Below, in pieces: positions 969 through 63,440 of a stretch of DNA of 64,000 nucleotides. Source of the stretch: Eledone cirrhosa (lineage: Eukaryota); NCBI GenBank assembly GCA_964016885.1, contig OZ024743.1:201438001-201502000 (forward strand), given 5' to 3'. Position numbers and translations under genes: made by a program. The notes below the pieces were generated by a model. It saw nothing but the letters and a program-made list of their open reading frames with translations, searched no databases and was not told the DNA's origin. How positions within the stretch are numbered: the first letter of the stretch is position 1; the number at the start of each line of letters is the position of its first letter.

Positions 969-1527
969 ATTATAATAAAATAACAGGAGGCTGGACTTGT
1001 GTAAATCCTTGAAGGGTTTATTATACTATGATCATTTCAATGACCGGGTTCTGTATGAATCTGGTGATATCACGTATTCGAAATATAATAAATGAATATA
1101 ACAGATAAAGTCCATGGGCTGAAAATCATAGACCTGAGGACGACCGACCATCTAGCATCTTCCACTTTAGCCGGTCACCCTCAAGTGGAAGATGCTAGAT
1201 GGTCGGTCGTCCTCGGGTCTATGATTTTCAGCCCCATGGATTTTATCTGTTACATTCATTTATTATATTTTGAATACCTGATGATATCACCGGATTCATA
1301 TGGAACCCGGTCATTGAAATGATCATAGTATAATAAACCTTTCAAGGATTTACACAAGTCCAGCCTCCTGTTATTTTATTATAATAATTAACTCCGTACT
1401 TGCACCCCAACTACACAAACGAAAATGGTTTAGCTGCTTTACGTTGAGCACTCTCTATATTATTACATCAAGATTGACCATACGGAATGACCAACTCTAT
1501 CCAGTGGTGAACCTTCAAACCTAAATA
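969..1527 (+). mobile_element. Non-coding foldback PLE/retrozyme-like element, family HH1: arms 969-1167 and 1183-1385, tail 1386-1527
   Basis: ~200 bp inverted arms with a 15 nt spacer; same family as 54071-55046; HHR motif; flanked by (TA)n. Confidence 0.8.
1274..1331 (+). ncRNA. Minimal type I hammerhead ribozyme
   Basis: AUAC-CUGAUGA-stem II (ACCGG..CCGGU)-GAAA-UGAUCA (palindromic stem III)-UA-GUAU. The mirror copy at 1024-1078 has a deleted core. Confidence 0.7.
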
Positions 1528-1544
1528 AATATATATATATATAT

Positions 1545-2330
1545 TTATTAAAATAACAGATTAAAGTTTAAGCAAAGAATCGCTGCTTTTACCCTTAACG
1601 GGATCTTCTGAAACTAACAAAGTCAATCTGTACGGTTGTTATATATTTGATATATATTTATCCTTATCGAGCCCTCTTTGGATTTTAGTCTTCAAATGTA
1701 TTATTATTACTAAATATATATATATATATATATATATATATATATATATATATATATATATATATATATAGTAATAATAATAAATTTGAAGACTAAAATC
1801 CAAAGAGGGCTCGATAAGGATAAATATATATCAAATATATAAGAATCGTTTTATTTACTTTATTCTTAACTCTGAAGCCGAGAATCATTCGGTTTCCTAG
1901 TTAGAATTTTAGTCTACGACTTCAGTTATACCATGTACGTGGTTTTAGTCTTTGTATGCAATTGTTCTCCCTGCTCCACATATGACGTATTATCTTCGTT
2001 TTTTCCGTTCATTGTCAGAGAACGTCTCTATGAACCACCTAATAGAATATTAGTCTACGACTTCTTTTATACCAGAAACGTGGTTTTGTCTTTGCGTGTA
2101 ATTGTTTTTCACTGCTCCAAATAATGACGTATTATATTCGTTTTTTCCCGTTCTTTGCCAGGGAACGTTTCCACGAACGAAGGTATCATCTTCCTGTCTT
2201 CCTCCGGTTGCAATGTTTTTTGAAATATTCACTTCTGCGTTCACAGATTGACATTGTTAGTTTCAGAAGATCCCGTTAAGGGTGAAACCAGCGATTCTTT
2301 GCTTAAACTTTAATCTGTTATTTTAATAAA
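1545..2330. mobile_element. Inverted pair of a non-coding (TA)n-inserted repeat family, probably PLE-derived
   Basis: 1545-1630 is inverted to 2244-2330; 1638-1712 is inverted to 1770-1846; internal ~140 bp direct repeat near 1908 and 2050; further copies at 27940-28007 and 62281-62380. Confidence 0.65.
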
Positions 2331-2756
2331 TATATATATACATATGCATATATATATATATAACATATATATACATATATATATATAAATATATATACAT
2401 ACATATATATATATATATATATATATATATATATATATATATATATATATATATATATATGAATGTATATATAGTGTATTTTGCAATACACTTTATGCTT
2501 AATTAAAACCATTTTGAAGACCGTATGCTATTGTTTTAGAGTAGTGACAGACTCACTTACTTTAATCTCAGCTTTGCAAAATACACTATATATACATTCA
2601 TATATATATGGCTATTTCAGGGCTCCAATTCTAATATGTATATATATATGTGTATGTGTGTGTCTAAACCAATGCAATCTCCTCTCATGTACACTGCATC
2701 TAACCCCTCTTATACCTAGTTTCTCTCTCAGTTCACTGATGCTTTGTCTCCCATGA

Positions 2757-3690
2757 ATCATCATCATCATCATCATCATCAACGTTTAACGTCCGTGTTC
2801 CACGCTTGCATGGGTTTGGACGGGGGTATTCCCACTTGAGGCAAGAGTGATTGTCTTGCTCGCATAGGACTGTCTGGCAGGTTTTCTACAGTTGGATGCC
2901 CTTCCTAACACCAACCACATTTACAGTGTGGGACTGGGAGGTTTTTACCGTGTTGCCTACACAGCCACATTACAGCATGGACTGTGTGTTTTTTTGTCGT
3001 GACACCTACACGATCTCATTTGTTTCGGCCTGGATGGTGTGGCACCAACATAACTTTACATAGGAGGGGGTGGTGTGGATGGGGGTGTGGGTGGTGGGAC
3101 GGGGGTGTATTTTGTTAGAGATGCCTACTGGCTGTAGTAGGTTTTACTATGTATTTAGGTAAGGCGGGTCTTCTCTATTACTGAGTACCGCCAAAGATCT
3201 CGGTCCAGTGACATTGTCTTGGAGAGGTATAAGGTCGGAGTTTATCAGCTCGTCCCAGGATTTTCTAGGTCTGCCTATTCCGTGGCTACCGTCTATCTTT
3301 ATTGCCCTGCACTTTGTTATACAGCTATCGACTTTCATGCGCATCACGTGTTCATACCAACGTAGCCTTCTCTCGAGTAAACAACATCTGATCCCTCTTA
3401 TTTCTAATTTTTTCCTTAGTTCGTTTATGCTTTGCCGTTCACGTATATTACTATTACACATCCAGCGGAGCATGCAAGCTTCGTTCCTCTCTAGTCTGCG
3501 TATATCCTCTGCGCACAATGCCCATGTCTCACTGCCATGCAACATTGCTGTTCGTATGCAGGCATCATACAACCTGCCTTTCATTTTTAGGGTGAACCCT
3601 TTAGCGGCTAATAGTAGTATAAGCTCTCTGAACTTTTTACATCCAGTTCTGACTCTAGCTACTGTACTTTCGGAGCACCCTCCCCAATTA
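2757..3690 (-). mobile_element. 5'-truncated RTE LINE, family A: ORF2 C-terminus, 3' UTR, (ATG)n tail
   Basis: ORF 3147-3695 has GRLYDACIRTAMLHGSETW, RRLRWYEHVMRM and GRPRKSW; near-identical to 49655-50600 apart from a small frameshifting deletion. Confidence 0.9.
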
Positions 3691-60560: not shown

Positions 60561-62005
60561 ATATTTATTTATTTATGTATTTATTTGTTTATTTGTTTAT
60601 GTATTTATTTGTTTATTTATTTATTTATTTGTTTACTTTTTCATTTAATTGTTTACTTATTTACTTATTTAGTTTTGCAGTGTATTTTCCTAAAATTATA
60701 TATTTGCTTCAGAAAAGTAACGTTCTTTGTATCACACTGTTTCTTCAATGAACTGTATTGCCTATCTTTTTCTTCTCTATCTATCTATCTATCTACATGT
60801 ATATATATACTTCTATGACCTCTGCTCATCACAGCAGCATTTTGTAATCCATTTTTTGAACTGCTTCACCCAACTCACAGTAATCCCGAAAAATCTTTAT
60901 GTTTTTCTTATATTTTCTTCTACAACACTACAGGTTTTACTGCAAGCATTTATACTAAGCAGAAACACACATATTTTACACTAACATAAAACACACAAAT
61001 ACATTCATAGACATTCACAGATATACAAACTGTTCCACTCCCACCCAACACTACCAAACGCCAATAGTTTCTCTGTTCTCCCTCAGTCGAAGACTATTTA
61101 TTCAGGTGGAAAACTTCAAAGTGAAGCTGTGATGTTATCAGAAGCTTTTCAAACCTGTCAAATATGACCCAGTAGCAAAACCACCACCACTTCATTCTCT
61201 CCCACCCACTAGGAAGTAAGTAGAATTAGCTCATTACACCCCTACCTCATCAACATTATATATATATTTATATATATATATATATATATATATATATATA
61301 TATATATACACACACACACACACACACACATATGTATATAAATATCTGGATTTACATATATATGCATATATATATATATATATATATATATATATATATA
61401 TATATATATATATATACATACATATATATATCATACCTATATATGTATATATAACTGCATACATTTATATCTATCTATCTATATATATATATAAGACGAT
61501 TATGTACGAATGTATATATACATGTATGTGAGGATTATGTATGGCTGTATATATAGATATTCATCTACATATAAAAGGGACATCACTAATGCTGAATTTT
61601 AGGCTGAAAATATTCCTGGCTAATATTTACTGTTTGTTTTATATTTTCCTTTGAACTTTCTAGAAGATCTTACTTACTAATATTGACATGATTCACAAAT
61701 TTCTATTTCTCCTTACGAACTGTTCACTCACCCTTTGCTTGGTGCTGTTGGTTACATTGGAGGTTAGTAAGTCTATTCTTGTTTTCATGGTGCTACTGAT
61801 GAACATTATAGGTAGCCAATGTAACTCGGATTCTTTCTATATACAGGGTGTCCTCCAAAACATGTATACAGACTTCAACAGCATTCTAATAAATATTACT
61901 TGTACAGGTAATGAAAGTGTGTATAACTGTATACTGTATATATAATGATGATGATGATGATGATGATGATATATATATATATATATATATATATATATAT
62001 ATAAC

Positions 62006-62152
62006 ATCATCATCCTCATCACTGTTTAACGTCCATTTTTCCACATTAGTATGGGTTAGATGAGTTGTTCTATGCTCACATCAGGACAACTCGTCTAACC
62101 CATGAAAGCATGGAAAAATGGATGTTAGATGGTAATGATGGTGATGATGATG
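62006..62152. repeat. Two RTE/SINE 3' tails fused head-to-head
   Basis: (CAT)n-gtttaacgtcc..gggttagatgagttg followed by caactcgtctaaccc..ggatgttag-(GAT)n. Confidence 0.7.
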
Positions 62153-62382
62153 ATATATATATATATATATATATATATATATATATACAGTATATATATA
62201 TATATATATATATATATATATATATATATATATATATATATATATATATATATATATACAGTATATATATATATATATATATTTATTAAAATAACAGATT
62301 AAAGTTTAAGCAAAGAATCGCTGCTTTCACCCTTAACGGGATCTTCTGAAACTAACAAAGTCAATCTGTAAACGCAGAATAT

Positions 62383-63440
62383 ATATAAAGATTTACATAT
62401 ACACAAACTAGATAAAGTGATAGATATGTTTTTGGCAACCATTCACGATGTGGCTTAATGATGAATTAATAAATTAAATAATCAGAGCAATATACTATAA
62501 ATTATGTCCTTAGAATCATTTGATAAAATATATACTCAATTTCCTCTCCCAATTAGTATAATCAACCACACAAAAAAACAATTAAACCAGGCTATAAGAT
62601 TAAAAGGCACCTGTGAAAAAATAATAGATAAATAAACGATAGCCATCTATTCGCGGTCAACAGCCATAGAATATTTACCAAGCATTTCAATAGCACATGG
62701 AAATCGATTAAATATATCGTCAACCATACACAATTAGGTATAAAATTAAAGTTAGAAGAAAAAATGCATATACTCTGATTATTTAATTTATCATTGAGGC
62801 ACATCGTGAATGGTTGCCAAAAACATATCTATGACTTTATCTAGTTTGTGTATATGTAAATCTTTATATTTGATAATCTCTCATAAGGTTGAGATGCAAT
62901 TTAGGCAATATTAGGCTGCGCTTTCTAGCAACCAGCCTACTAGCCATAAGGCACCAATCACATTCTTTCTAACTTGACCACTGCCATGTCACAGTTCTTA
63001 GCCATTTTGAATTTGTTTCTGGCGGGGATCATTTAAGAAAAATCTTTGTCCAAGTGAGTTTGTTTCCTGATGAGTTGGAAGCTCGAGAATTTATCCTTGA
63101 TAGGATATTTCCGAAAGTGAATGAAACCCTAAAGGGTAGAAACGTAATCCTAGTATGTGTATATGCATTTTTTCTTCTAACTTTAATTTTATACCTAATT
63201 GTGTATGGTTGACGATATATTTAATCGATTTCCATGTGCTATTGAAATGCTGGGTAAATATTCTATGGCTGTTGACCGCGAATAGATGGCTAATATTTAT
63301 TTATCTATTATTTCTTCAAAGGTGCTTTTAATCTTATAGCCTGGTTTAATTGTTTTTTTTGTGGTTGATTATACTAATTAGGAGAGGAAATTGAATATAT
63401 ATTTTATCAAATGATTCTAAGGACATAATTTATAGTATAT
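62383..63440 (+). mobile_element. Non-coding HHR element, family HH5: ~670 nt unit (62773-63440) preceded by an inverted permuted copy (62383-62772)
   Basis: 62383-62487 is the reverse complement of 62773-62869; 62491-62772 is the reverse complement of 63160-63439. Confidence 0.8.
63062..63143 (+). ncRNA. Type I hammerhead ribozyme with a long stem II
   Basis: GUUUC-CUGAUGA-[49 nt including the UAUCCU UGAU AGGAUA hairpin]-GAAA-CCC UAAA GGG-UA-GAAAC; GUA triplet, predicted cut between 63138 and 63139. Confidence 0.8.

Follow-up and report, generated by a model that had tools for sequence, protein, structure and literature searches.

Type I hammerhead motifs of probable Penelope-like element families in Eledone cirrhosa, including an abundant family with a fixed change at core position 4

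The stretch of the Eledone cirrhosa genome analyzed here (assembly GCA_964016885.1, contig OZ024743.1, positions 201,438,001 to 201,502,000; hereafter the window, 64,000 nucleotides numbered from its first letter) contains numerous type I hammerhead ribozyme motifs associated with (TA)n tracts. The best explanation, to which we assign a probability of about 85%, is that at least nine families of Penelope-like elements (PLEs) carry these motifs in their terminal repeats, that six of the families are linked to reverse transcriptase (RT) and GIY-YIG endonuclease frames, and that the window copies are likely dead, 5′-truncated stubs left by the elements' own enzymes when copying into (TA)n. An earlier note, made from the window sequence alone, had described about seven hammerhead families as a diverse, largely non-coding fauna; what it found is familiar biology, present at an uncommonly high density. 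Published reports already describe hammerheads in PLEs, genomes with many such families, pairs on opposite strands, a palindromic stem III, and the targeting of (TA)n (PMC4209133; PMC8557442), as well as an octopus Hydra element with a hammerhead (PMC8557442). As far as the literature was searched, three things go beyond print: a U4A substitution fixed in an autonomous family of very high abundance, a second family in which position 4 is labile, and the density itself. No paper on cephalopod hammerheads was found in that search.

Hammerhead motifs and their abundance

With a GC content of 36% and many microsatellites, the window forms part of a 3.0-Gb assembly. The type I layout is present at all 12 of the positions where the earlier note had placed a hammerhead. 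With a strict type I descriptor, seven distinct sites were identified (C3 at 1278+, 41797−, 42725+, 52327−, 52514+, 54319−, and 54936+), as against means of 0.09 in 100 shuffles of 500-nt blocks (maximum 1) and 0.06 in 100 whole-window shuffles (maximum 2); motif frequency is thus far above that of shuffled sequence. A broader descriptor gained the sites at 46020 and 63067, for nine canonical-core sites (score of at least 9, no G17) compared with 0.03 in 60 shuffles. The other named copies carry local defects: that at 35297 (family B2) has just two proximal stem I base pairs and fails both descriptors, the weak stem I being common to 20 of 20 loci of its family; that at 41441 (family C) has A6G, while all 19 other copies fetched have a canonical core; and that at 53306 (family D) has a broken stem I. 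The 63067 copy (family F) has a decayed 49-nt stem II, with the true GAAA at 63123 and a CCC-UAAA-GGG stem III. Matches at 27470, 59724, 44775, 59174, 63950, 36112, and 9285 had incomplete stems and were dropped as chance matches.

Each motif was searched genome-wide, with 40 candidates scored of 503 to 4,042 per family, and the 20 to 25 best loci per family were fetched with 1.5-kb flanks. Copies within families are 90–100% alike, and the core is canonical across the copies of families A, B, B2, C, D, E, E2, and F. All seven or eight motif types listed in the earlier note are high-copy genomic families, though its count missed two, G (four window copies) and H (two window copies), both Hydra-type. 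Its statement that most families share no sequence outside the core was too strong: B and B2 are 71–72% alike over 150 nt, and E and E2 form one superfamily with stems I and III in common. The palindromic stem III that it reported for three families is seen in A (UGAUCA) and in C and E/E2 (UAUAUA). In families D, F, and G, stem III has 4 bp and a loop of 4–9 nt; given this predicted structure, they would have no need of dimerizing.

Abundance was estimated from 99 stretches of 10 kb (990 kb) taken at round coordinates on 22 contigs. This sample contains 62 canonical cores (0.6 in shuffles), 13 cores with A4 (0.2), and 10 with U3-A8 (1.2), which group into 11 clusters of at least two members and 23 singletons. 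These data suggest a genome total of approximately 190,000 canonical intact-core motifs, an order-of-magnitude figure, as fold-back pairs are not independent. Direct genome counts (at least 48,905 for one pattern of the E/E2 superfamily, 15,557 for G, and 3,683 for family I) agree with it in scale, so that the window appears to be a roughly typical to two-fold rich piece of the genome. For comparison, 126,247 hammerheads have been counted in the far larger axolotl genome (PMC7229834), and approximately 2,000–9,000 minimal motifs per genome in other animals, with stems II and III shorter than those here (PMC4209133); the descriptors behind both counts differ from the one used here.

Coding links and element anatomy

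Elsewhere in the genome, RT/GIY-YIG frames of the same element lie upstream of the hammerheads of families B, B2, C, G, and H, as identified by tblastn and motifs. For this reason the window copies appear to be mostly ends of coding PLEs that are 5′-truncated and in many cases inverted. B, B2, C, and probably E2 represent 3′ ends of this kind. Six of ten families are coding-linked (E2 probably), F is non-coding, and A, D, and E have no linked frame. The picture of a largely non-coding fauna mostly fails accordingly, whereas the proposed link between several type I hammerhead families favoring (TA)n and PLEs is borne out. Within the window, coding remnants are limited to B, B2, and H; among the families listed in the earlier note, only B and B2 keep coding sequence there, in line with its remark that two families show an open reading frame (ORF).

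Family B is represented by a truncated inverted PLE of Neptune/Nematis type (41566–42914, unstranded), with a GIY-YIG C-terminal remnant at 42006–42516 and hammerheads at 41758–41802 (−) and 42720–42764 (+), both having an additional nucleotide after A9. Its relative B2 occupies 35054–35747 (−), with an endonuclease C-terminal remnant at 35565–35747 and a hammerhead at approximately 35260–35301 (−; C3 at 35297) whose proximal stem I is weak. The B frame ends 187–195 nt before the hammerhead query in most of 20 loci, and the B2 frame approximately 240–280 nt before its hammerhead. The two proteins are approximately 63–65% identical, and both contain a C-x4-C-x2-C linker and a GIY-YIG of CCHH type; the combination of a CX2-5CxxC linker with a CCHH endonuclease is common to both clades, Neptune and Nematis, which these motifs alone do not separate. 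The published elements of this type also share the microsatellite targets and the inverted 5′-truncated copies (PMC8557442), and nothing unusual was found in B or B2.

The remaining coding-linked families resemble the Hydra clade, defined by RWK and DKT, a CxCx5C linker, CxxC and CxH around E and N, and no CCHH (PMC8557442). Read by eye, the corresponding motifs are RWR, DKT, CNCRNRVDC, CDLC, and CKH in G; RWK and DKT in C; and CSCRKPDEC, CSLC, and CPH in H. Published Hydra-clade elements, including Hydra-1_Obim of Octopus bimaculoides, likewise have a C-terminal GIY-YIG domain, the RWK/DKT/CxCx5C signature, (TA)n targets, and a 3′ hammerhead that frequently has U10.1-U11.1 (Craig et al., 2021, PMC8557442). 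The H stem III, ACCA-N-UGGU, is that of Hydra-1_oBim, and the D stem III, ACAG…CUGU, that of several Hydra entries (PMC8557442, File S2). In contrast to the single octopus Hydra family described in that source, many families at very high copy number are present here, and the G unit (3.27 kb) exceeds the usual length of less than 3 kb.

Family H includes a truncated element at 39890–40496 (−), with an endonuclease C-terminal remnant at 40332–40496 and a hammerhead at approximately 39969–40029 (−; C3 at 40021) that has G at cleavage position 17; a second H-type stub at 38660–38769 (−; C3 at 38750) has A17 and a mutated A15.1. Elsewhere, the Hydra-type endonuclease frame of H ends approximately 250–420 nt before the hammerhead. 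Full-length copies of G (repeat-ORF-repeat, approximately 3.3 kb) have hammerheads 3,265, 3,309, and 3,270 nt apart (loci L245, L247, and L248), and all three carry frameshifts. A full-length copy of C (L250) contains a Hydra-type frame, with 3,496 nt between hammerheads; the window stub of this family lies at 41213–41547 (+), with its A6G hammerhead at 41436–41490. For E2, whose window stub is at 52432–52612 (+; hammerhead 52506–52571, C3 at 52514), a Hydra-type endonuclease, and only the endonuclease, was seen 1.3–2.1 kb upstream in five loci, two of which (L251 and L252) are 85% alike over 1.6 kb upstream. The 3′ untranslated regions of G and E2 span 0.9–2 kb. A protein search returned 519 homologues at E ≤ 1e-10, mostly of approximately 700 aa, one of which, P0047, exceeded the Pfam GIY-YIG cut-off. 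Different PLE families were also observed nested side by side in one (TA)n tract, at 41213–42914 and in loci L250, L257, and L066.

A tract of at least five TA units occurs within 300 nt downstream of 16 of the 18 window copies, compared with 31% of random window points. The C and E2 matches are not true 3′ junctions; E and E2 meet TA in the window at their 5′ ends only (52402–52431). Across the genome, such tracts lie at family-specific distances past the 3′ end in 17 to 20 of 20 loci per family, with 24 of 25 for G, 20 of 20 for H, and 18 of 20 for C among the Hydra-type families. The clustering of these distances is the stronger sign of insertion into (TA)n, because the span searched (640 nt) exceeds that for which the background of 29% was measured (400 nt).

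The 3′ ends are fixed and bimodal (+27 and +115 in G, 46 and 48 of 103 matches; +150 and +220 in B, 30 and 25 of 60), the 5′ ends of both families are scattered, and many copies are inverted, head-to-head fold-backs. Fixed 3′ ends and truncated inverted copies have been described as PLE anatomy (PMC8557442). Partial tandems of the pseudo-long terminal repeat kind were seen in G, with direct repeats of 190, 315, and 734 nt, and 3′ tails are 70–90 nt as compared with the published 30–40. Mapping of E2 5′ ends was swamped by low-complexity matches and discarded. A number of these features recur in the report of Cervera and De la Pena (2014, PMC4209133): genomes with several consensus families, a majority of copies single and truncated, pairs on opposite strands 100–700 bp apart, the additional nucleotide after A9, palindromic stem III, and the U3-A8 variant.

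By analogy with the literature on PLEs, the GIY-YIG endonuclease of each element would nick (TA)n, and RT would begin copying the transcript 25–300 nt past the hammerhead. Reverse transcription would usually halt early, often folding back, so that the hammerhead would be the part most often left and stubs would accumulate. The ribozyme may trim tandem transcripts slowly, perhaps aiding circularization; families with a palindromic stem III (A, C, E, E2, and H) would cut as dimers and those with a stable one (D, F, and G) as monomers. PLE repeat hammerheads cut slowly in vitro, and those with palindromic stem III likely cleave as dimers (PMC4209133; review, PMC6765202). Selection likely preserves the fold while demanding little cutting speed; this would allow the spread of G with U4A, of family I with U4C, and of one H subfamily with G17.

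The original proposal, that most of these hammerhead elements are non-coding, resemble retrozymes, and are mobilized in trans by PLE enzymes, is improbable, although family F counts in its favor. This family is a 668-nt unit whose longest open frame is 79 aa; in the window it occupies 62773–63440 (+; feature 62383–63440), with a hammerhead at 63062–63143 (+; 49-nt stem II region, stem III CCC-UAAA-GGG) and an inverted arm (62383–62773) that holds a tail-to-head junction. Of 40 loci fetched in two overlapping sets, 23 have the unit preceded head-to-tail by its own tail, and none of the 40 contains two consecutive full units with complete hammerheads, partial tandems alone being seen. F is a non-autonomous element, and F alone is demonstrated to be a non-coding tandem unit with a type I hammerhead. 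It shares these traits with metazoan non-LTR retrozymes, and its length falls within the 51–972 bp range given in a 2026 preprint that argues that animal retrozymes are non-autonomous PLE derivatives (PMC7229834; bioRxiv 10.64898/2026.07.22.740005). Unlike those retrozymes, F forms dispersed partial tandems with inverted arms in (TA)n rather than multimer arrays; nor do the other families form tandem arrays.

Families A, D, and E also fit a non-coding origin insofar as they show no frame. Family A forms a fold-back insertion at 968–1528 (unstranded, centered near 1177; 85 matches among 40 scored of 1,963 candidates), with an intact hammerhead at 1274–1331 (+; C3 at 1278, U10.1-U11.1, UGAUCA) and an inverted arm at approximately 1009–1088 whose core is partly lost. 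A second insertion at 54052–55046 (unstranded) has two intact hammerheads, at 54266–54323 (−) and 54932–54989 (+), and no reading frame was linked to it within approximately 1.5 kb upstream; the family extends for more than 1.5 kb upstream without a PLE frame. Family D is a short fold-back at 45957–46100 (−; hammerhead 45975–46027, C3 at 46020, U10.1-U11.1, 4-bp stem III) with no linked frame, and a copy with a decayed hammerhead at 53239–53367 (+; C3 at 53306). Family E is a stub at 52255–52401 (−; hammerhead 52267–52338, C3 at 52327, UAUAUA), again with no frame linked for its subfamily. Six of the ten families are linked to coding frames, however, and flanks of 1.5 kb can miss a frame, because the 3′ untranslated regions of G and E2 reach 0.9–2 kb. 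Direct-repeat copies within loci are also scarce: none in A or E, one partial copy each in C and E2, and two in D. In the D loci (L167–L185), most copies start within a few bases of the hammerhead stem I 5′ strand, and their fold-backs commonly reverse at that very point, which may reflect a bias of the search or a site where RT stalls.

Several results weigh against the origin from coding PLEs favored here. No coding frame was linked to A, D, E, or F in 20–40 loci each within the 1.5–2 kb examined, and upstream walks of A and F reached none. Pfam searches gave no domain for the G and C proteins and only a sub-threshold RVT_1 match for B; two short window translations gave nothing significant. 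The clade names rest on motifs rather than on an RT tree and are to that extent provisional. The 5′ ends of DNA copies do not pile up at the cleavage site in G or B. For the motifs themselves, Rfam searches recovered no hammerhead in the window, either at the gathering threshold or among 150 listed of 334 matches at E ≤ 10; the microRNA-like matches were TA repeats and fold-backs. The three-way fold is not the predicted minimum-energy monomer structure of any of 10 motifs folded, although stems I and II do form in the predicted folds of A, B, and C, and z-scores of −2.7 to +0.6 do not set the motifs apart by single-strand folding. Covariation, examined in the E/E2 superfamily, supports the fold, with qualifications: in 12 diverse copies drawn from 52 distinct stem II sequences, both sides vary in eight of nine stem II pairs, and pairing holds in 98.8% of cells (reached in 0 of 500 shuffles; slid controls 33–59%), but the control ignores relatedness, the structure was drawn from the same sequences, and the selecting pattern fixes the core. 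Stems I and III are invariant or changed one-sidedly. That the motifs are chance products of AT-rich, microsatellite-rich DNA, as the Rfam and folding results might suggest, has next to no probability, being refuted by the shuffles (7 sites against 0.06–0.09 in the window; 62 against 0.6 in 990 kb) and by the family alignments, with conservation throughout the families concerned and covariation.

Core variants in families G, H, and I

Family G is young, autonomous, and very abundant. Its window copies are stubs of the 3′ repeat of a Hydra-type PLE: one at 62283–62380 (−), with a hammerhead at 62303–62353 (C3 at 62348) and the core C3-A4-G5-A6-A7-G8-A9, and three further A4 copies at 1545–1632 (−; C3 at 1610, G12 mutated), 2243–2333 (+; C3 at 2264), and 27937–28007 (−; C3 at 28004, decayed). 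An exact 33-mer of the family has A4 in 10,307 copies and U4 in 28. With the core left free, A4 is present in all of the first 100 of 15,557 matches, seven of which have one change elsewhere; 93 of the 100 keep every other core position and each of the three stems intact. A4 is found in both repeats of the full-length copies. The hammerhead has a 5-bp stem I, a stem II of U10.1-U11.1 plus three G-C pairs, and a 4-bp stem III. The U4 copies do not support an ancestral subfamily: the 10 examined are ordinary copies (92.5–97.5% alike), and their share of 0.27% fits point mutation, with two having U4 on both inverted arms. The G 3′ end was also observed to be covered by contigs of four runs from three organisms.

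Published PLE hammerheads differ at this position. All cores in File S2 of PMC8557442 begin CUGA, with U4 throughout, whereas G has CAGA; U4 is likewise present in 56 of 56 rows of Fig. S3 of PMC4209133, whose descriptor required it; the descriptors of both sources favor U4. U4C, U3-A8, and U10.1-U11.1 are described as natural variants by Perreault et al. (2011, PMC3088659); variants are rare in that survey, whereas U4A is fixed in more than 10,000 copies here, and the term U4A is absent from its main text. No report of a U4A PLE hammerhead was found in the literature searched, a search of text rather than figures and not exhaustive.

Two further families vary within the core. The H subfamily to which the 40021 copy belongs has G17 in 20 of 20 loci; PMC4209133 includes a single case of G17 (S. 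mansoni 3). Family I, which is not in the window (L214:9417, L225:2876, L268–L287), has at least 3,683 copies with a minimal-type hammerhead and is a different PLE with a C-terminal endonuclease (RVT_1, 6.6e-11; GIY-YIG, 5.4e-6). By hand count, position 4 is C in 59, U in 33, G in 5, and A in 3 of its first 100 matches; with the core left free, 100 matches gave 67 C4 and 33 U4, other core positions varying in at most five. Its stem III alternates between the palindromes AAUU and AUAU. The U4, C4, G4, and A4 copies are mostly tied to different flanking variants, which, with the complementary G5-to-A change in only 2 of 100 matches against U4 in 33, argues against CpG decay as the sole origin of U4. 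Judged on their cores, G and I (position 4) and the H subfamily (position 17) are hammerhead-like variants rather than canonical members. Families with U3-A8 were also observed (L294:3568; L298:2380 and 2975; L211:3181; L340:7310), one of them with a 59-nt stem II region and a palindromic stem III (seven matches in 990 kb).

The U4A core likely makes G RNA cut slowly or not at all. It is quite possible, at odds not far short of even, that in G it is a working natural variant, in which a stable stem III together with U10.1-U11.1 and A7, or else tertiary contacts that escape notice, would keep cleavage slow but real, and fast enough to count. The intact core and stems of 93 of the first 100 copies point this way, though G is young and an intact remainder is therefore no proof of selection after U4A. 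Position 4 is also the sole single core substitution that clusters in the 990-kb sample (13 against 0.2), family I varies at the same position, and natural U4C leaves a viroid infectious despite low activity in vitro (PMC3088659). Conversely, every single change in the CUGA turn gave low activity in a full mutational scan (PMC9901934), and the analysis turned up no diverged sister lineage of G that has A4 and shows covariation.

More tentatively, the G hammerhead may be catalytically dead, the element spreading without it as Naiads do and the motif being a passenger or a structural signal. More than 15,000 copies exist despite U4A, the full-length copies read across the cleavage site, G17 is fixed in the H subfamily, and Naiads are unhindered by the absence of a hammerhead and may parasitize PLEs (PMC8557442). 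On the other hand, fixed core changes in 990 kb are confined to positions 4 and 17 and the paired U3-A8 swap, with no cluster having a fixed change at G5, G8, G12, or A13; this counter-evidence is weakened by the descriptor, which permits one core change and would miss families of more decayed core. What probability remains falls to activity that would depend on a protein or partner RNA. DNA ends are no guide to G cleavage in either direction.

Taken jointly, and somewhat doubtfully as a whole, position 4 may be free in the PLEs of this genome (a Hydra family with over 15,000 copies has A4 fixed; C4, G4, and A4 occur in subfamilies of an unrelated PLE family), the C-A-G-A core may self-cleave as a new variant missed by CUGA searches, and the approximately 190,000 intact cores may outnumber those of axolotl. 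Should the C-A-G-A core cut, the consensus for natural cores becomes wider and current descriptors miss hammerheads in their counts; should G not cut, hammerhead catalysis is dispensable for a Hydra-type PLE. Family G is thus a natural experiment on the question, left open in PMC8557442, of whether PLEs need a hammerhead. U4A lowers activity in model ribozymes, and the natural U4 copies of the G sequence serve as controls.

Other repeats in the window

Several (TA)n-flanked fold-back repeats have no detected hammerhead (29892–32038, 1632–1849, 35864–36686, and 61969–62186). These are possibly the ends of other PLEs, including hammerhead-less ones; that at 1632–1849 is the family G 3′ tail folded back.

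A young-looking element resembling a long interspersed nuclear element (LINE), which we take to be L1/Tx1-like, occupies 10446–15742 (+), with ORF1 and an AP-endonuclease/RT ORF2 split near 13745–13866. LINE fragments with (ATC)n tails, presumably RTE-like, lie at 2757–3731, 49654–51948, and 55227–57561; many repeats resembling short interspersed nuclear elements have 3′ ends in common with them, and an Rfam search identified a tRNA-derived head at 40733–40790. A very high-copy short repeat family with an internal duplication, in which no hammerhead was found, has about ten window copies (9861–10277, 17327–17945, 27260–27379, 29271–29661, 34195–34392, 37898–38127, 44219–44361, 47393–47734, 48126–48350, and 52614–52751). 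A 2.4-kb (CCA)n array at 18011–20418 is followed by 30-nt and 42/88-nt minisatellites at 20587–24945.

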